Below, piece by piece: positions 1 to 14,485 of a stretch of 17,512 nucleotides of DNA. The translations under genes were made by a program, and so were the position numbers. Source of the DNA: Eledone cirrhosa (taxonomy: Eukaryota); assembly GCA_964016885.1 (NCBI GenBank), contig CAXHJY010001424.1, positions 1 to 17,512 of the forward strand. The letters run 5' to 3'. Numbering within the stretch: the stretch's first letter is position 1; the number at the start of each line of letters is the position of its first letter. A model generated the notes under the pieces. It was not told the origin of the DNA. It saw only the letters and a program-made list of their open reading frames with translations, and ran no database searches.

Positions 1-561
1 ATAGAAAATTAGAAAACTAAAAAAATATTACGAAAGAATATTACATAATAAAAATATTATATATTAAACATACTACGTATTAAAAAATATTACGTATTAA
101 AAATTTACATATTAAAGATATTAAAAATAAAATAAAAAATAAAAAATATTATAAAATACTACAATAATAAAAATAAAAATAAAAATAAAAATAAACCACA
201 AAGATCAACCCTTCAAAGTTAATTGACAATATATTGCCAAGTTCATTACAAGACAAAGCCAAAAATTATCTATCAAATCACATCTAGCAAAGATCATTTC
301 AAAAAGATTATGATGTCCAATTAGGTCTACATATGTTCTTATATTTAATATAGAAGTTTATCTAGTGTAAGGTTTATTCAAAAAATTTGGAGCATCAGCT
401 TTTAGGGTAGCTTAATTTTTCATGAGGAATGTTTAGATAAAAATAAAATAAAATAAAAATAAATAAACAATAAAAAAAGAGTAAAAAGAAGGAATCAAAG
501 ATTTAGGAATCAAAAATTTATCGGCTAGTTTCCCATATAAATATAAATCAAACTAAATATA

Positions 562-1227
562 CTACATTTTAAATTTAAATTTATATTTAAACGTTGAGTT
601 TAATCTATGTTTGCAACAACTGAATAAATTTGTCCGTAGGTTAAGGGAATTTTTAGATTTTAGTATAAAGAATATCTCCTCTGCGCAGAGGTCACATGTC
701 TCAGAGGATGAATTAAAAGGAATCCCTCTTGAGACTATATTCCAAGCCGTCGAATATCTAACGTTATCTAGCTTAAGTTGCCAGAGTACGCCTGATAGTG
801 CCGTTGAAGATTTTTTACTTGGATCTGTGAAAGAATTCTTGTGGTTATTATAGCGAAGTTTAAATTCCGTCGATGTGGAACCGACGTAGTTAAAAGAATT
901 AGAGTCAGTATTAACATTACAATTGTATACTATATTTTTAACTAAGCAGTTGTTATTTAACGGACATTTAGATCTATCTCTACAGTTACATTTGTTAACT
1001 TGTATATTATTTATGCTATTATCAGTAGGTTTTAAGTTCCTATTATTTATTCTATTAATATTTTGTGCTAAATTTTTGGTGGATGAGTAGGTTAATTTAA
1101 TTGTATGCCTATTGAAAATTGAGTGATACCTATGTGTTCTAGGGAAGCGATTATCAAGAGCTTTGAAAAATAATTTAGCGATGTAGGTTTTAATGTTTAG
1201 TGAGAAAGGGGGGGGGGGGCAAACCAA
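562..1227 (-). CDS. Inverted copy of the PLE GIY-YIG endonuclease region
   Basis: Same protein as 3092..3754 apart from LNLRTN versus LNLQTN. Confidence 0.85.
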   Translation of the reverse strand: MVCPPPPFSLNIKTYIAKLFFKALDNRFPRTHRYHSIFNRHTIKLTYSSTKNLAQNINRINNRNLKPTDNSINNIQVNKCNCRDRSKCPLNNNCLVKNIVYNCNVNTDSNSFNYVGSTSTEFKLRYNNHKNSFTDPSKKSSTALSGVLWQLKLDNVRYSTAWNIVSRGIPFNSSSETCDLCAEEIFFILKSKNSLNLRTNLFSCCKHRLNSTFKYKFKFKM

Positions 1228-2062
1228 ATTATGTTCCTAGTTCTATTTCTTTTTTGTCCTTTGGAATTATTGTAATGCTTTCTATTATAGTTGTTAATGT
1301 TGTTGCCGTAATTAAAAAAGTTGTTACTTTGTTTAGTTTGTCTATCATTATCTATGTACACAATATTATCAGCATATCCTGCCCTAGCTAGTGCTTCATT
1401 ATAGTATTGGGCCTTTTCGTCGAAAATCTTTCTATTCGACGAGATCCTAGAGATACGTTTTTGAACTGAGTTTACTATAGTGTTTTTGACAGATCTGGGG
1501 TGGTTAGAGTTAAAGTTGACATAGTTTAAGTTTTCATTCAACTTGTGAAAAGGATAGTGGAGACATGTGTTGAGATTTAATGTTATATCTAGGAAATTGA
1601 CTATTCTATGGTTGTTCTCAATTTCTATTTTAAGGTTAAAGTAATTAAAAAATTTTGTAATTTGTTTACATTTTCTATTTAGTTCAGGGTTATTATTATT
1701 AATAAGTAAAAGCATGTCATCCCTATATAAACCTCCGGTAGTACCAGGTATTTTCCTATGTAGCGAATTGATTAAAAATAAGCCCACAAGGTCAGTTACC
1801 TGAGCTGAGTCGGAAGATCCCATAGTTATGTCAAAATTGCTATCTCTATCTGCTCTGGTCCATAATTTGTCATTAAATTCTATCAAAGTTTTCCTAGCCG
1901 ATAATATAATATGCATTTCTTTGCTAGTTAGGTCAGTATGTTTGAATGCGTAATTTAGTGCCTTATTTAGTAGACTAGGGGTAATAGAAGAATAATAGTT
2001 AGCTATATCAAGTTGAATAAACCTATTATTATTGTTATATTTAATTTGCCTAAACCACTCAA
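1197..2062 (-). CDS. Inverted partial copy of the PLE RT (EWFRQIK... to ...IIWFAPP)
   Basis: Translation is identical to the + strand RT from EWFRQIKY onward. The ORF-track N-terminus (2063-2282) is antisense of the loop and not real. Frameshift at the G12 run 1208-1219. Confidence 0.85.
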
Positions 2063-3126
2063 GGAAACCGAAGATCCATATGAAAGACCACAAGAGGAAT
2101 TTTGAAAATGACCTGCCAGTTAGATTGATCGCACCTTCAAAATCGGACCTGGGCAAATTAAGCAAAAACATTCTTGACAGGGTGATACAGCAAATTAAGA
2201 ACTTGGATTGTGTATCTAACCTGAGCTTGTGGAAGGGAACTGGAGAGGTTGTTGAGTGGTTTAGGCAAATTAAATATAACAATAATAATAGGTTTATTCA
2301 ACTTGATATAGCTAACTATTATTCTTCTATTACCCCTAGTCTACTAAATAAGGCACTAAATTACGCATTCAAACATACTGACCTAACTAGCAAAGAAATG
2401 CATATTATATTATCGGCTAGGAAAACTTTGATAGAATTTAATGACAAATTATGGACCAGAGCAGATAGAGATAGCAATTTTGACATAACTATGGGATCTT
2501 CCGACTCAGCTCAGGTAACTGACCTTGTGGGCTTATTTTTAATCAATTCGCTACATAGGAAAATACCTGGTACTACCGGAGGTTTATATAGGGATGACAT
2601 GCTTTTACTTATTAATAATAATAACCCTGAACTAAATAGAAAATGTAAACAAATTACAAAATTTTTTAATTACTTTAACCTTAAAATAGAAATTGAGAAC
2701 AACCATAGAATAGTCAATTTCCTAGATATAACATTAAATCTCAACACATGTCTCCACTATCCTTTTCACAAGTTGAATGAAAACTTAAACTATGTCAACT
2801 TTAACTCTAACCACCCCAGATCTGTCAAAAACACTATAGTAAACTCAGTTCAAAAACGTATCTCTAGGATCTCGTCGAATAGAAAGATTTTCGACGAAAA
2901 GGCCCAATACTATAATGAAGCACTAGCTAGGGCAGGATATGCTGATAATATTGTGTACATAGATAATGATAGACAAACTAAACAAAGTAACAACTTTTTT
3001 AATTACGGCAACAACATTAACAACTATAATAGAAAGCATTACAATAATTCCAAAGGACAAAAAAGAAATAGAACTAGGAACATAATTTGGTTTGCCCCCC
3101 CCCCCCCCTTTCTCACTAAACATTAA
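2032..3126 (+). CDS. PLE reverse transcriptase domain, N-terminally truncated (genuine RT sequence from about 2063; frameshift at C14 run 3095-3108)
   Basis: 364-aa ORF with QLDIANYYSSI, FDITMGSSDSAQV, GLYRDDML, VNFLDITLNL, YVNFNSNHP and IIWFAPP. The first ~10 codons come from the inverted arm. Confidence 0.9.
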   Translation: MLYLICLNHSRKPKIHMKDHKRNFENDLPVRLIAPSKSDLGKLSKNILDRVIQQIKNLDCVSNLSLWKGTGEVVEWFRQIKYNNNNRFIQLDIANYYSSITPSLLNKALNYAFKHTDLTSKEMHIILSARKTLIEFNDKLWTRADRDSNFDITMGSSDSAQVTDLVGLFLINSLHRKIPGTTGGLYRDDMLLLINNNNPELNRKCKQITKFFNYFNLKIEIENNHRIVNFLDITLNLNTCLHYPFHKLNENLNYVNFNSNHPRSVKNTIVNSVQKRISRISSNRKIFDEKAQYYNEALARAGYADNIVYIDNDRQTKQSNNFFNYGNNINNYNRKHYNNSKGQKRNRTRNIIWFAPPPPFLTKH

Positions 3127-3754
3127 AACCTACATCGCTAAATTATTTTTCAAAGCTCTTGATAATCGCTTCCCTAGAACACATAGGTATCACTCAATTT
3201 TCAATAGGCATACAATTAAATTAACCTACTCATCCACCAAAAATTTAGCACAAAATATTAATAGAATAAATAATAGGAACTTAAAACCTACTGATAATAG
3301 CATAAATAATATACAAGTTAACAAATGTAACTGTAGAGATAGATCTAAATGTCCGTTAAATAACAACTGCTTAGTTAAAAATATAGTATACAATTGTAAT
3401 GTTAATACTGACTCTAATTCTTTTAACTACGTCGGTTCCACATCGACGGAATTTAAACTTCGCTATAATAACCACAAGAATTCTTTCACAGATCCAAGTA
3501 AAAAATCTTCAACGGCACTATCAGGCGTACTCTGGCAACTTAAGCTAGATAACGTTAGATATTCGACGGCTTGGAATATAGTCTCAAGAGGGATTCCTTT
3601 TAATTCATCCTCTGAGACATGTGACCTCTGCGCAGAGGAAATATTCTTTATACTAAAATCTAAAAATTCCCTTAACCTACAGACAAATTTATTCAGTTGT
3701 TGCAAACATAGATTAAACTCAACGTTTAAATATAAATTTAAATTTAAAATGTAG
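3092..3754 (+). CDS. PLE linker + GIY-YIG endonuclease, continuing the RT ORF after the poly-C frameshift
   Basis: Contains KLTYSST.N, CNCRDRSKCPLNNNCL, IVYNCNV...YVGST..FKLRY..H..SF, TALS..LW.LK, CDLC.EE and LN....CCKH; stop TAG at 3752-3754. Confidence 0.88.
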   Translation: MPPPPPFSLNIKTYIAKLFFKALDNRFPRTHRYHSIFNRHTIKLTYSSTKNLAQNINRINNRNLKPTDNSINNIQVNKCNCRDRSKCPLNNNCLVKNIVYNCNVNTDSNSFNYVGSTSTEFKLRYNNHKNSFTDPSKKSSTALSGVLWQLKLDNVRYSTAWNIVSRGIPFNSSSETCDLCAEEIFFILKSKNSLNLQTNLFSCCKHRLNSTFKYKFKFKM

Positions 3755-4749
3755 TATATTTAGTTTGATTTATATTTATATGGGAAACTAGCCGATAAAT
3801 TTTTGATTCCTAAATCTTTGATTCCTTCTTTTTACTCTTTTTTTATTGTTTATTTATTTTTATTTTATTTTATTTTTATCTAAACATTCCTCATGAAAAT
3901 TTTAGCTACCCTAAAAGCCGATGCTCCAAATTTTTTGAATAAACCTTACACTAGATAAACTTCTATATTAAATATAAGAACATATGTAGACCTAATTGGA
4001 CATCATAATCTTTTTGAAATGATCTTTGCTAGATGTGATTTGATAGATAATTTTTGGCTTTGTCTTGTAATGAACTTGGCAATATATTGTCAATTAACTT
4101 TGAAGGGTTGATCTTTGTGGTTTATTTTTATTTTTATTATTGTAGTATTTTATAATATTTTTTATTTTTTATTTTATTTTTAATATCTTTAATATGTAAA
4201 TTTTTAATACGTAATATTTTTTAATACGTAGTATGTTTAATATATAATATTTTTATTATGTAATATTCTTTCGTAATATTTTTTTAGTTTTCTATTTTCC
4301 TATTTTTCTATTTTTTTAGTTTTCTAGTCTATATTTTTACTTATTATTATTATTGTTATCTTTTTATTTTTAGTTTTGTTTATGATATATATTTTTATTA
4401 GTATATTGAAATCTGCTCTCTATTTCTGCTTGATAGATAATCTTGTAGAGTAATGACAGGAATAATAATACACATATTTGTATGCTCAAATTTTTATACC
4501 ACATTGAGAATGTTTTCCGTGAACTTAGAGTTTGCAGAGCGAATCAGTTGGATTCGCATGGATGTTTGTAGCTGTCACATAAACATATGAATTTTTTTAA
4601 AACTAAACATAAGATAATTAATTTTCACACATTATGGATACTTGTCTCATTCAAGAATACTGATATTTACAATATAGTGTAAGTTTTATAAATACTAATA
4701 CATTAAAACATAGGGTTTTTACGCCTCGAATATATCTGGCTATTTTTAA

Positions 4750-5095
4750 ATTTTTTTTTCTCTCGCTATTTTTTTCCTCTCTATATATTTTTTTCTCTCT
4801 ATATATATCTCCCTTACATTAATACTTGAGCTAAATAAATAAATAAACGTATCATTGATACATTTACTCAAAATGACCTCCCACTACCTAATTTTCTATA
4901 TATATATGTATCTATCTCTATTTCCTCTCTCTCTATATATATATATCTCTTTCTGTTTCTTTACATGAAGTTCTTCGCTTTATCTATCTTTCCATCTCTC
5001 TATTTTGTTCCATGCATTTCCTCTTTCTCTTCTTTTTCTTCCTTTTCTTCGTTTTCTATCTTTCTTTCTGTTTTCTCTCTTTCTTTCTCTCTGTG
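4750..5095 (+). repeat. Pyrimidine-rich (CT/T-rich) low-complexity tract in the PLE 3' region
   Basis: Runs such as ttctctctct and ttcttttc with very few purines. Confidence 0.6.
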
Positions 5096-5183
5096 TAAAA
5101 TTTTTTCACTGCCAGCGTAAACCTCTTCAAATGAAGTAGGTGTTATAACGGTATGTCGAATCTATTTATCTATAAAACTGTTT

Positions 5184-5260
5184 ATATTGTATTTTGTCTG
5201 ATGAAGGCATAGCATATTGTTAATATGATATCCCCGAAATATATATAATGAAATAAATAT
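5184..5260 (+). ncRNA. Type I hammerhead ribozyme at the PLE 3' end (pLTR), partly degenerate stem II
   Basis: Stem I atatt(g)tattttgt / atgaaata-aatat; CTGATGA 5198-5204; stem II hairpin around catatt-gtt-aatatg with mismatches; GAAA 5236-5239; palindromic stem III ATATATAT; predicted cleavage after A5247 (AUA). Confidence 0.75.
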
Positions 5261-5386
5261 GGTTTTATAAATATAGTTTTCCATTTATTTAATATTGTAA
5301 ATATACTCCAAATATTTGTCGAGTGCTTTTATATCAGTTATAAATATTTACTAGTTGTAACCCAACAATTTTAAATATAACTTTCC

Positions 5387-6643
<1,257 letters not shown>

Positions 6644-6856
6644 TCTATATATCTATATAAAACTGAGGTTGTCTGTCTGTCTATCGATTTTTGGCACACA
6701 TCTCCTCTTAGAATCTCTCGCGGAATTGCACCGAAATTGCTATACTTGTACATTGAGCCCTAGCGAAGACATCGGAAAAAAAATATTTCAAATTGACCCG
6801 CCCTATCTGACGAAATCGAATATAATGTATCGATTTTTGAGCGAAAGTGATCAGTT

Positions 6857-7048
6857 ATTTCCCTTTGTTCTGTTTACATTCAGCGTAGCGTCTTACGTTC
6901 TCTTTACATTTTCTGCGTGCAAAAATTAAAAAAATGATTTCCCTTTGTTCTGTTTACATTCAGCGTAGCGTCTTACGTTCTGTTTACATTTTCTGCGTGC
7001 AAAAATTAAAAAAATTACGCTGGCAAAAATTAAAAAAATTACGCTGGC
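6857..7048 (+). repeat. 80-bp tandem duplication (6857-7015) followed by a 24-bp tandem duplication inside the Helitron-like element
   Basis: atttccctttgttctgtttacattcagcg... starts at 6857 and 6937; gcaaaaattaaaaaaattacgctg occurs twice. Confidence 0.85.
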
Positions 7049-7301
7049 TTTCTCAGCGTTTAAAATGACATTAACACAATACACGAACAGCTGTCGAGCC
7101 AGCAAAATTTTGACCTGCAAAATTCATCAGTTCGAACACTAAACTTCCGTTTTGCTTCATTTCCATTTAAAAGCCTTTTAAAACAATATTTTTACTTGAA
7201 AACAAGTCTATTTAAAGACTACGTAAAACAGGCAAATATTTCGTAAAAAAAAGCAAAAATTATATAAGTTTATTTAAAATATATGTATCTGTAAATTTCG
7301 T

Positions 7302-7409
7302 TAGGCGTGCAGACAGACCGTCGTGCAGACAGACAGTCGTGCAGAGAGGTGATATAGGCGTGCAGACAGACAGTCGTGCAGAGAGGTGATATAGGCGTGC
7401 AGACAGACA
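7302..7409 (+). repeat. Minisatellite built from cgtgcagacagaca / cgtgcagagaggtgatatagg units
   Basis: Several cgtgcaga-containing units are visible in tandem. Confidence 0.85.
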
Positions 7410-7714
7410 TAACTGATAATTTGGTTACGCTAATGTTTTTCTCTGCGTTGCAGTGTTTACATTTTCGATCTTTGTTAATAAATAACCAGTGCAGTTTTTA
7501 TCCCCAGCATCCACTTTTGTTATAACATTCGGGTTATCGTTATGTTTTCTTAACTTCATAAGGCATATTGTTGGTTGAGGGAATATTAATCAAAAACACC
7601 ACATGCAAGTCTGCACAGTAGACACTACAGTTTTTAAGCCAAAAAAGAAACTTAACATTGTAACTTTAACACAACTACTGAGCGACCCCGAGCAACGCCG
7701 GGCTTTACTGCTAG

Positions 7715-10253
<2,539 letters not shown>

Positions 10254-10753
10254 TGAGTTGAGATGGAGGGTCTGTGGTTTTTCTCACATCTGGTTGGTCT
10301 CTGAATGTTACTTGCTTTATATGGAAAAAGTGGCTCGAAATGCCAGGTTTTTCGAGAAGTAATTTGATTGGTTTGTCAATAATTATAATAAATTTCGCGC
10401 CAGTTCGCGTTACAATAGTTCTTCAAATAAGAGGGGGGGGGGGGGGGGGCGGGTTGTCACAGGTTGTTTTTTCATATATGAGTGTTTGAATTTCTTTTTA
10501 CTTGAAAAAAGGAGGCTCACGAAGGCTTTTTTTTGGTTGGTTATAAATATGGCTGTCACGTGAACAAATTTTCATTAAATTTTTGTGCCCTTATTTGGAA
10601 ATCCATTCTGTAGCCTTTTTAGAGAATTTTTTGATAATTGAAAGATAATGGTCAAGAGAAAGGGATGGGAGAATTGTTCTGGTTCAGTGAATATGGTTAG
10701 TTCGCTGGGGTGTCAGAATTCAGATTTTCTATTGAATAAAGAAAGTAAAGATA

Positions 10754-10812
10754 TGTGTGTTTATTTGTGTGCTTGTGTGTGTGCTTGTGTGTGTGCTTGT
10801 GTGCTTGTGTGC

Positions 10813-10870
<58 letters not shown>
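10754..10870. repeat. (GT)n / (GCTTGTGT) microsatellite in the left arm only
   Basis: Directly visible; the right arm has only a short (CA) tract at 10937-10950. Confidence 0.9.
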
Positions 10871-10873
<3 letters not shown>

Positions 10874-11106
10874 AATTTCTTTACTTTACAAAAAGGTTTC
10901 TTGAGCCACCCTTTTTTTAAAATAAAGAAATTCAATCACACATACACACAAATAAACACACATATATTTACTTTCTTTATTCAATAGAAAATCTGAATTC
11001 TGACACCCCAGCGAACTAACCATATTCACTGAACCAGAACAATTCTCCCATCCCTTTCACTTGACCATTATTCCCTTTCACTTGACCATTATCTTTCACT
11101 TATCAA

Positions 11107-11295
11107 TATGGCGGTGGATTGGCAGTATCGGTAGAGGGTCGGACGCCATGCTTTGATGCATAGAGTTACGGCCTTTGCTATTCTGAGTTCAAATCCCGCC
11201 GAGGTTAACTTTGCCTTTCATCCTTACGGGGTCGATAAAATAAAGTACCAGTAATGTACTGGGTAATTTCTGGCCTTGTGCCAATAGTAGAAACA
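11107..11295 (+). mobile_element. tRNA-derived SINE with 19-bp target-site duplication
   Basis: A box tggcagtatcgg (11120-11131), B box gttcaaatcc (11187-11196) and a central gcctttcatccttacggggtcgataaaataaagtacc segment resembling the conserved Sauria/Meta-type SINE domain (from memory). TSD attatctttcacttatcaa at 11088-11106 and 11296-11314. Absent from the other arm. Confidence 0.88.
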
Positions 11296-11691
11296 ATTAT
11301 CTTTCACTTATCAAAACATTCTCTAAAAAGGCTACAGAATGGATTTCCAAATAAGGTCACAAAAATTTAATGAAAATTTGTTCACGTGACAGCCATAATT
11401 TCATTTATAACCAACCAAAAAAAAGCCTTCGTGAGCCTCCTTTTTTCAAGTAAAAAGAAATTCAAACACTCATATATGAAAAAACAACCTGTGACAACCC
11501 CCCTCCCCACCCTCTTATTTGAAGAACTATTGTAACGCGAACTGGCGCGAAATTTATTATAATTATTGACAAACCAATCAAATTACTTCTCGAAAAACCT
11601 GGCATTTCGAGCCACTTTTTCCATATAAAGCAAGTAACATTCAGAGACCAACCAGATGTGAGAAAAACCACAGACCCTCCATCTCAACTCA

Positions 11692-11729
11692 CCTTTTGAA
11701 AAGCAGAAGAACTGCGAAACCGGTAAAGG
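11692..11729 (+). ncRNA. Minimal type I hammerhead ribozyme with U3-A8 core variant
   Basis: cctt-TTGAAAA-gcag(aagaa)ctgc-GAAA-ccgg-TA-aagg: 4-bp stem I, 4-bp stem II, palindromic ACCGGT stem III, predicted cleavage after A11725 (GUA). Confidence 0.65.
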
Positions 11730-11801
11730 ATCCAAATAAATATATATATTTAAAAAAAAAATAAGACTCCAGTTGCATTTTCGATTTCATCTCTTTTTCT
11801 T

Positions 11802-12350
11802 TATACATATATATATATACATATATACACATATATATATACACATACACATATATATATACACATATATATATACATATATATATATATACATATATAT
11901 ACACATACATATATATATATATATACACATATATATATATACACACATATATATATATATACACACATATATATATATACACACACATATATATATATAC
12001 ACACACATATATATATACACACACATATATATATACACACACATATATATATACACATATATATATATATATACACATATATATATATATATACACACAT
12101 ATATATATACACACATATATATATATACACACATATATATATATACACACATATATATATATACACACATATATATATATACACACATATATATATATAC
12201 ACACATATATATATATATATACAGATATATATATATATATACAGATATATATATATATACAGATATATATATATATACAGATATATATATATATACAGAT
12301 ATATATATATATACAGATATATATATATATACAGATATATATATATATAC
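11802..12350. repeat. (TA)n microsatellite with CACA and CAGA variants
   Basis: Directly visible. Confidence 0.95.
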
Positions 12351-12645
12351 AAGTATGCATGTATACGTACATACATATATGTATACAGACGTACAGTAGC
12401 ATGCACACATATATATATATATACATATATACATACATATGCATACAGGTACACATACATATATGCACGTATCAGTTTAGCGGCGCTAACGTCGAACAAA
12501 GCGACGTTAGCGCCGCTAAACTGATACGTGCATATATGTATGTGTACCTGTATGCATATGTATGTATATATGTATATATATATATATGTGTGCATGCTAC
12601 TGTACGTCTGTATACATATATGTATGTACGTATACATGCATACTT
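12351..12645. repeat. Perfect hairpin: 144-bp arms 12351-12494 and 12502-12645, 7-nt loop aacaaag
   Basis: ...gcggcgctaacgtcg-aacaaag-cgacgttagcgccgc...; the outer ends aagtatgcat / atgcatactt are complementary. Confidence 0.95.
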
Positions 12646-12805
12646 ACATTTAAGTAAGTGCCATACTAAGAGTGAGAAATGAAATTTCGTTTTCATTTTG
12701 TTTCAATTTATCGTTTTCGGTATGCCTGACCGATTTAACTCACTCAATATGCAAATTAGGCTGCTCAGCCGTTAATTTTCATAAGGAAAGTATATACTTT
12801 CGAAC

Positions 12806-12892
12806 GTTCAACTATCTGGCAGATGGGTAAACGGTGCTGATGATAGCTAACAAGCTTGAAACTAGTACATCGTTCCTGTGTCAGTGTTGAAC
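12806..12892 (+). ncRNA. Minimal type I hammerhead ribozyme, copy 1
   Basis: aacggtg-CTGATGA(12837)-t agct aaca agct t-GAAA(12858)-ctag-TA-catcgtt. Palindromic ACTAGT stem III; stem I extends via ctggca/tgtcag and gttcaac/gttgaac; predicted cleavage after A12867 (GUA). Confidence 0.88.
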
Positions 12893-13271
12893 AAAAAGGT
12901 GACGTGGTTGCCTTAACACCGTATGGCATAAATTCAGGCTGTTCAGTTTGTTTACAAACGAACAAAGCGACGTTAGCGCCGCTAAACTGATACGTGCATA
13001 TATGTATGTGTACCTGTATGCATATGTATGTATATATGTATATATATATATATGTGTGCATGCTACTGTACGTCTGTATACATATATGTATGTACGTATA
13101 CATGCATACTTACATTTAAGTAAGTGCCATACTAAGAGTGAGAAATGAAATTTCGTTTTCATTTTGTTTCAATTTATCGTTTTCGGTATGCCTGACCGAT
13201 TTAACTCACTCAATATGCAAATTAGGCTGCTCAGCCGTTAATTTTCATAAGGAAAGTATATACTTTCGAAC

Positions 13272-13358
13272 GTTCAACTATCTGGCAGATGGGTAAACGG
13301 TGCTGATGATAGCTAACAAGCTTGAAACTAGTACATCGTTCCTGTGTCAGTGTTGAAC
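13272..13358 (+). ncRNA. Minimal type I hammerhead ribozyme, copy 2
   Basis: Identical to copy 1 and 466 nt downstream: CTGATGA at 13303, GAAA at 13324, predicted cleavage after A13333. Confidence 0.88.
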
Positions 13359-13645
13359 AAAAAGGTGACGTGGTTGCCTTAACACCGTATGGCATAAATT
13401 CAGGCTGTTCAGTTTGTTTACAAACGAACAAAGCGACGTTAGCGCCGCTAAACTGATACGTGCATATATGTATGTGTACCTGTATGCATATGTATGTATA
13501 TATGTATATATATATATATATGTGTGCATGCTACTGTACGTCTGTATACATATATGTATGTACGTATACATGCATACTTACATTTAAGTAAGTGCCATAC
13601 TAAGAGTGAGAAATGAAATTTTGTTTTCATTTTGTTTCAATTTAT

Positions 13646-14017
13646 ATATATACAGATATATATATATATATATACAGATATATATATATATATACAAATA
13701 TATATATATATACAGATATATATATATATATACAAATATATATATATATACAGATATATATATATATACAGATATATATATATATACAGATATATATATA
13801 CAGATATATATATATATACAGATATATATATATATATACAGATATATATATATATACAGATATATATATATATACACATATATATATATATATATATATA
13901 TACGGATATATATATATATATACAGATATATATATATATATACAGATATATATATATAGTTATATATATATATATATAGTTATATATATATATATACACA
14001 TATATATATATATATAC

Positions 14018-14052
<35 letters not shown>

Positions 14053-14065
14053 TATATATATATAC

Positions 14066-14116
<51 letters not shown>

Positions 14117-14162
14117 TATATATATATATATATATACAGATATATATATATATATACAGATA
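13646..14162. repeat. (TA)n/(TATACAGA) microsatellite
   Basis: Directly visible. Confidence 0.95.
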
Positions 14163-14485
14163 TGTAGGAGGTGAGTTTTATTGTAGTACAATAAAGCAAT
14201 GCAGATATCGGATAAGAAGCACTCTACAGTTTGTGGGACTGGAGTATGGATAATATAAGATCAAAAGATGGTTAAAGGAGTTCCATATATTTTATTATGC
14301 GCATTTCAAAAACAAATATGTTGATTTAAAACTGCACTATCAACAAGTGTTTTTTAGCCTTCATATCATGTTCTCCTGTTTTATCTGATGAAAACGCAAA
14401 TATTATTGTTTGATGATGTTTGTTTTTGAAATGCGCATAATAAAATATATGGAACTCCTTTAACCATCTTTTGATCTTATATTAT
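14163..14485 (+). mobile_element. Short fold-back HHR-bearing insertion (pLTR-like fragment); 67-bp inverted arms 14250-14316 and 14419-14485
   Basis: ataatataagatcaaaagatgg...aaaaacaaa is the reverse complement of tttgttttt...ccatcttttgatcttatattat. An HHR overlaps the loop and right arm. Confidence 0.7.
14370..14455 (+). ncRNA. Type I hammerhead ribozyme with long stem II
   Basis: tgttttat-CTGATGA(14385)-aaacgcaaatattatt gttt gatgatgtttgttttt-GAAA(14428)-tgcgca-TA-ataaaata. Palindromic ATGCGCAT stem III, stem I extension gttct/ggaac, predicted cleavage after A14439 (AUA). Confidence 0.83.

Follow-up and report, generated by a model that had tools for sequence, protein, structure and literature searches.

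How does a non-coding unit of 466 bp, with a hammerhead ribozyme in each full copy, come to stand in tandem between two TA microsatellites, and from what kind of RNA was it copied? Both questions are raised by positions 12351-13645 of the window, i.e., the whole 17,512-nt stretch analysed, which is an entire 17.5-kb contig of a 3.0-Gb genome. This array had been read, from its letters alone, as a candidate retrozyme whose mobilisation relies on a Penelope-like element (PLE) acting in trans, and that proposal fits what we found: the family is dispersed in high copy, is non-coding, carries a constrained hammerhead, and has insertions of PLE-type anatomy. On this evidence the array very probably belongs to an animal non-LTR retrozyme, a non-autonomous PLE that is likely mobilised into (TA)n in trans by the RT-endonuclease of a PLE.

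Layout of the array

TRF found a tandem with a period of 466, 2.5 copies, and 99% matches at 12493-13645, its units at 12493-12958 and 12959-13424 being identical, and the frames over the unit are only low-complexity or ~100-aa, stop-to-stop frames. The ~2.5 near-identical, non-coding 466-bp units of the sequence-only reading are thus borne out, as is its inverted 144-bp 5' end, since 12351-12494 is an exact reverse complement of 12502-12645 (Table 1). Both of the CUGAUGA/GUA cores that it described were also located; the CTGATGA...GAAACTAGTA cores begin at 12837 and 13303, the GTA triplets end at 12867 and 13333, and ACTAGT, the palindromic ACUAGU stem III, is present in both copies. Unit positions are numbered from the base directly 3' of the predicted cleavage site (12868 = position 1). 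The description of the unit as bounded by hammerheads needs amending, as the hammerheads bound the predicted RNA monomer but are internal to the element. A whole-window Rfam scan gave only microsatellite-driven, miRNA-type matches among the 150 of 380 that were listed.

Table 1. Features of the two-armed array and its flanking tracts (window positions).
Feature	Positions	Strand	Details
TA-type microsatellite, left target tract	11802-12350	.	
Inverted arm	12351-12494	-	Unit ~244 back to 101; outer "no-tail" end against TA-type tract
Direct arm	12493-13645	+	Unit 92-466, 1-466, 1-310; head joins inverted arm; outer "tail" end against (TA)n
Type I hammerhead 1	12806-12892	+	Extended stem I; palindromic ACTAGT stem III; CTGATGA core 12837; U-U at 10.1/11.1 = 12844/12857; predicted cleavage after 12867
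Predicted 466-nt monomer RNA, between both putative cleavage sites	12868-13333	+	Placed from the core positions; modelled as a circular fold
Type I hammerhead 2	13272-13358	+	Identical to hammerhead 1; predicted cleavage after 13333
~60-nt tail (unit 251-310)	13586-13645	+	Between the two fixed ends; contains a hairpin
TA-type microsatellite, right target tract	13646-14163	.	

Elsewhere in the window, a non-coding element with an inverted-repeat layout lies between TA tracts at 10214-11801 (repeats at 10636-10779 vs. 10937-11083; 10214-10330 mirrored near 11620-11740). Ends like those of this element also occur at two other loci (L024 and L307), and it is possibly another TA-targeting mobile family. 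A unique stretch with short tandem repeats of 80, 24, and 37 bp lies at 6660-7710; it includes, at 6807, a weak CTGACGA...GAAA motif.

A type I hammerhead with a variant core

The 87-nt hammerhead region folded on the + strand into stem II and the long, interrupted stem I that had been read from the letters (z -3.6; 0/200 shuffles as good), and the expected fold was absent from the - strand (z -0.9; 40/200 shuffles as good). Among Rfam models, Hammerhead_HH9 matched this region at 18.5 bits (E 0.046), which is below the gathering value of 52 and lends weak support, and Hammerhead_1 was unmatched. To this can be added an alignment of 17 hammerhead types, picked by hand from 29 types that recur within or between arrays (among 191 in total), in which 96.9% of cells on the hammerhead structure were paired, compared to 33-49% in slid controls. 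Nine of 21 pairs changed on both sides; because most of these double changes separate just two lineages, they represent few events. The stems also covary with those of the sister family (see below), and the recurrent types have A, C, or U at N17, in a search whose pattern admitted any base there. The alignments and folds thus support a type I hammerhead under structural constraint.

The canonical type I features C3-A9, G12-A14, A15.1-U16.1, the NUH triplet, and helices I-III are present, with a helix I of 6-7 bp and an extended stem, a helix II of 4 bp, and a helix III of 2 bp with a palindromic loop. Canonical metazoan type I hammerheads are described as having a helix I of 6 bp, a helix II of 4 bp, a helix III of 1-2 bp, and a palindromic loop, and as being active as dimers; the min-HHRs of PLEs are described as having no or a minimal helix III, a short helix I, a long helix II, and an extra base before G10.1-C11.1 (PMC4209133). 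By this definition and by its helix lengths, the architecture is canonical type I and not "minimal", as the earlier reading had it. A monomeric stem III would require a 2-nt loop that is forbidden by the energy model, and ACUAGU pairs with itself; therefore, a dimer is expected for the predicted activity.

The G10.1-C11.1 pair, termed "highly conserved" in PMC4209133, is absent from the 466-bp family. The first pair of stem II is instead U-U, as had been pointed out for both copies and as we saw in each. Relaxed cores with U at 10.1 numbered 28,166 genome-wide, those with any other base there 277 (control, 11), and the sister family has G-C at the positions in question. Judging from these counts, the U-U is a fixed trait of the family and not decay of these two copies, and it may make cleavage weak. 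In vitro, 8 of 9 Xenopus retrozyme dimers are reported to have shown no cleavage (10.64898/2026.07.22.740005).

PLEs and hammerheads abound in this genome, with many further hammerhead-like families near TA tracts (L209-L226 and L307). One separate hammerhead family (L210) also has U-U at 10.1/11.1, together with a TGATCA stem III.

An abundant, dispersed family

Counted genome-wide by sequence patterns, the exact 41-nt core had 10,032 matches on both strands and its reversed control had 0; the core is therefore not a product of chance. With the 28,166 relaxed cores, these matches establish that copies of the unit are dispersed across the genome, where they occur at many loci as anything from monomers to multimers. 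One tail-end pattern alone retrieved 1,745 tail-(TA)n junctions, and older subfamilies have periods of ~420-430. We take the window's array to be one young insertion of a high-copy, dispersed, non-coding hammerhead family.

The layout is shared by a sister family (L192, L277-L305), which is 67% identical to the unit over 251 nt. This family is of low copy number (L192:4150-5640; L277-L305), retains an intact G10.1-C11.1 pair and the same two-end anatomy, and has GUA, GUC, or GUU as its cleavage triplet; at L278-L286 it lies within a larger, 2,817-bp repeat. The window itself holds a ~60-bp, two-armed insertion of this sister family between TA tracts (5584-5645), in which a short, inverted no-tail end is joined to a short tail end.

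Two fixed 3' ends and random heads

We parsed 89 loci, consisting of the window, 48 clusters from exact-core matches, and 40 from relaxed-core matches, largely in genome order on C1, and left 68 other landmark matches that were false or unclassified out of the end count. Outer ends against (TA)n were either of the no-tail kind at unit ~244-250 (61 ends) or of the tail kind at ~305-310 (58 ends). Hence, there are two fixed 3' sites ~60 nt apart, and the permuted ends anticipated for these arrays were not observed; only the 5' heads vary, being random and, in the 18 pairs whose walk closed, scattered over unit 38-450. In 34 loci with head-to-head arms, 36 of 36 rows paired one tail end with one no-tail end, where pairing was by nearest neighbour and the rows include one double count and one duplicated segment. 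Either arm may be the longer (18 of 24 pairs walked closed; 6 were excluded), the longest arms comprise ~15 units, and arms pass repeatedly through the hammerhead site. We consider fold-back copying of the tailed arm unlikely, as the untailed arm was longer in 5/18 pairs and arm starts mostly differ.

The mixed pairing with a single tail is the "tail" signature of PLEs, for which in vitro work offers an explanation: a PLE enzyme was described as nicking and extending both strands and as starting RT at two internal sites that delimit the tail (PMC11167929). The anatomy as a whole, i.e., 5' truncation, a head-to-head inverted copy, and a one-ended tail, is thus of the PLE type, as had been supposed. 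Any target-site duplication would be masked by the TA tracts on both sides. The autonomous PLE family B, described below, has the same two-end type, its ends being ~95 nt apart.

Tandem arrays in a palindromic arrangement and a microsatellite context would also be expected of a satellite or MITE-like repeat spread by DNA recombination, or of a unit moved by a TA-targeting LINE, with the hammerhead arising by chance, and two head-to-head joins with LINE-like 3' ends could be counted in favour of such an origin. However, the fixed 3' ends with random 5' truncation, the strict tail/no-tail pairing, and the strand-specific fold with its covariation all argue against it, and we consider it highly improbable. 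In the PLE-based mechanism that we propose instead, the enzyme would nick both strands of the TA tract, and each 3'-OH would prime cDNA at one of the two internal starts (unit ~250 or ~310), drawing on a single RNA or on separate RNAs of one source. Each cDNA would extend for a random length across repeated units, and the two cDNA heads would then be joined; such a template would need to present its units end to end.

Candidate helper elements

The genome contains many near-identical PLE copies with open frames, among which we distinguished family A (738-745 aa frames; 4,011-bp tandem), also present at 1-5387 of the window, family B (821 aa frame; 3,707 bp), and family C (713 aa frame). Families A and B carry hammerheads, insert in (TA)n, and have the Hydra-clade set of motifs: RW[R]/DK[T/S], a CxCx5C linker, CxxC, CxH, and a C-terminal endonuclease. 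Of these, family C has the cysteine motifs only. Both the motifs and insertion into (TA)n are given for the Hydra clade in PMC8557442, and A and B were assigned to it from motifs alone; a Neptune identity was considered and set aside, as the motifs fit Hydra better. Pfam gave no match for the window's two PLE frames and the PDB none for family B. From these sequence features, the helper is likely a Hydra-clade PLE.

In the window, the family A copies at 1-5387 are 5'-truncated and head-to-head (arms 1-2062 and 2252-4303, 99% identical), encode an RT, the CxCx5C linker, and an endonuclease, carry a frameshift in a C run near 3096-3109, have a hammerhead-like core of their own at 5198, and end at TA. 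At 14164-14480 lies a two-armed stump of family B, in which the tailed end is inverted and meets a direct, untailed end that has a hammerhead-like core at 14385 with a palindromic ATGCGCAT stem III.

Type I hammerheads occur in pLTRs and many arrays have PLE ORFs nearby, as would be the case if an autonomous PLE had the unit as its pLTR and had left the arrays behind as truncated remnants. However, in the 89 loci the sequence past the no-tail end was always the next unit and never an ORF, the hammerheads and ends of families A and B and the 3' end of family C differ from those of the 466-bp unit, and fusions of the unit to an ORF lack a constant junction (unit 214, 229, 105, and 284). Terminal homology to the unit was absent from families A, B, and C, and there is no parent PLE among these three. 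The view that the unit is not the pLTR of an autonomous PLE holds for all three, and a pLTR origin seems to us very unlikely.

Two of the fusions join unit and family B in the same sense with no TA spacer. At L034, unit 214 is joined to the RT (98% to an intact copy), and at L031, the junction is between the endonuclease and unit 229 (92%). Of the two ends of each composite, one is tailed and the other is not. Both loci suggest template switching; deletion between neighbours is also possible. Not all PLE fusions can be taken as co-integration, because a control of 153 arm heads, of which 85 abutted the opposite arm, 23 TA, 3 a PLE ORF, and 42 other DNA (about a third of these 42 being mis-calls), showed that heads also abut LINE-like 3' ends and other elements. 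The head-to-head fusions (L191, L262, and L062) are therefore ambiguous, and since the fusions do not single out an enzyme, the assignment to a PLE rests on the end signature.

At two loci (L041:2700-3131 and L066:2400-2872), untailed retrozyme arms stand head-to-head with LINE-like 3' ends that are 5'-truncated and have (GAT)n tails, and the same LINE-like 3' end also closes a family-A-like arm at L191. We take this neighbouring element to be RTE/LINE-like; such joins could come from co-integration across families or else from crowding within TA tracts.

Circle or linear multimer as template

Units within an array differed by 1.0 substitution on average (181 pairs, 136 of them from one array), compared to 11.4 substitutions between arrays (561 pairs); therefore, new haplotypes regrow into multimers. 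In 29/29 testable pairs (of 34), the two arms of an insertion resembled each other more closely than they did the median other arm, and in 12 of these 29 more closely than any other arm. Private haplotypes fill whole arrays (L066 and L035), and the haplotype C287T+C303T+T361A was found only in two homogeneous arrays, with no mixed source array seen. An impression that array starts pile up at the cleavage site, gained from L045, L060, and L070, was not upheld, as truncations there (6/30 inspected of 213 matches; ~43) were in no excess over those at a control site (9-11/20 inspected of 90 matches; ~40-50). Taken together, the within-array likeness, the likeness of the arms, and the lack of a 5' pile-up rule out that a cleaved, linear monomer usually served as template, and indicate that units were presented end to end from one source.

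The lack of a 5' excess is as expected if the RT crosses a sealed junction, and a ligated circle from dimeric hammerhead cleavage is the main template that we favour, to which we would give about an even chance; it would also explain how private haplotypes come to fill whole arrays. A pure monomer circle would not suffice as the sole template, however, because the three-unit order [C446T][8-nt deletion][plain] recurs in a nineteen-unit, two-armed array (L065 and L222; C1:69,578,000-69,586,800), where one arm has it twice and the opposite arm has it once. In some events uncleaved or multimeric RNA may also have been used, a supposition that we hold with somewhat less than even confidence. The non-integer tandem of the window had been regarded as the trace of copying around a circle, but it does not require one: in vitro, internal starts and the use of uncleaved RNA are both recorded for a PLE RT (PMC11167929), and the three-unit order points the same way.

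The same PLE passenger might instead always be copied from linear, uncleaved read-through RNA of existing arrays, with no circle, the arrays regrowing by template jumps or by later unequal crossing-over and the hammerhead being weak or acting at a different step. The repeated three-unit order and the alternating unit types of another array (L069) favour this, as do the U-U core variant and the in vitro finding that hammerhead cleavage is dispensable for PLE insertion, unprocessed RNA being the dominant substrate (PMC11167929); the lack of a 5' pile-up is equally compatible with it. On the other hand, private haplotypes in all units of an array, with arms of up to ~15 units, need regrowth from one unit, and the stems and the NUH rule have been kept across families. 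We regard an exclusively linear template as a real possibility that falls short of an even chance.

A more specific form of the favoured circular template is doubtful but worth stating. Both cDNAs could start 60 nt apart, one per site, and roll round the same putative circular RNA, driven by a dimeric enzyme of a Hydra-clade PLE, by what is termed twin priming. If true, this would give each insertion a single tail and a pair of multi-unit arms that share a haplotype, and it would be driven by a hammerhead able to function with U-U where G10.1-C11.1 is usual. The family would then document, in the genome itself, a natural link between retrozyme circles and the enzymology of PLEs.

Comparison with known systems

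Animal non-LTR retrozymes have been defined and their circles found in coral and axolotl (Cervera and de la Pena 2020, PMC7229834), and they have been argued to be non-autonomous PLE derivatives (Li et al. 2026, 10.64898/2026.07.22.740005); in the latter source, 24 of 57 Xenopus retrozyme families match a TE, and 21 of 22 TEs are PLEs. Copying of circles for more than a unit has also been proposed already (PMC4209133). The element class is thus known, and our family is a further non-LTR retrozyme. Like those of PMC7229834, it is a non-coding tandem with a type I hammerhead per unit, occurs as dimers to multimers, has a GC content under 50%, shows no LTR, PBS, or PPT, and co-occurs with PLEs, and its short, palindromic helix III resembles the axolotl motifs that need dimers. 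Its units of 466-540 nt (older ones ~420-430) exceed the 150-450 given in PMC7229834 but fall inside the 51-972 range of 10.64898/2026.07.22.740005. It differs in the U-U at 10.1/11.1 and in that no homologous pLTR was found among families A, B, and C, and whereas retrozyme circles were observed in coral and axolotl (PMC7229834), those of the present family are predicted. Fixed two-site ends and two-armed insertions are absent from the available sections of the published retrozyme descriptions (PMC7229834; 10.64898/2026.07.22.740005).

These traits are instead familiar from PLE insertions, with their partial tandems, 5' truncation, head-to-head inverted copy, and one-ended tail (Arkhipova et al. 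2013, PMC3846280; Craig et al. 2021, PMC8557442), their AT-rich targets, and their two internal start sites (Frangieh et al. 2024, PMC11167929). Unlike PLE insertions as there described, the family has no ORF, its tail is ~60 nt rather than 30-40, and both arms can be multi-unit. In addition, its ends were one of each in 36/36 rows, whereas the start sites used in vitro are reported without a strand difference (PMC11167929). Families A and B, by comparison, are autonomous, with frames of 738 and 821 aa in units of ~4.0 and 3.7 kb, and share no terminal homology with it. Chlamys elements such as MRC1 are likewise non-coding PLE passengers with multicopy, head-to-tail insertions, but they are algal and generally resemble the 3' end of an autonomous element, and theirs is an N-terminal EN+ clade reported to lack canonical hammerheads in the sections of PMC8557442 that treat it. 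In the papers searched, mainly open-access main texts, we found no published description of this family, of strict one-tail pairing in retrozymes, or of twin priming for PLEs.

In the literature available to us, the route by which non-LTR retrozymes return to genomes, and the enzyme responsible, are still hypothetical. Here, a young and very abundant family (about 28,000 cores) lies beside intact candidate helpers, and rules can be counted from its thousands of insertions: there are two fixed start sites, a two-armed insertion uses one of each, and the hammerhead site is crossed freely. The in vitro assay published for PLEs makes these rules, and the choice between circular and linear templates, directly testable, and the fixed U-U variant probes how far a hammerhead core can drift.
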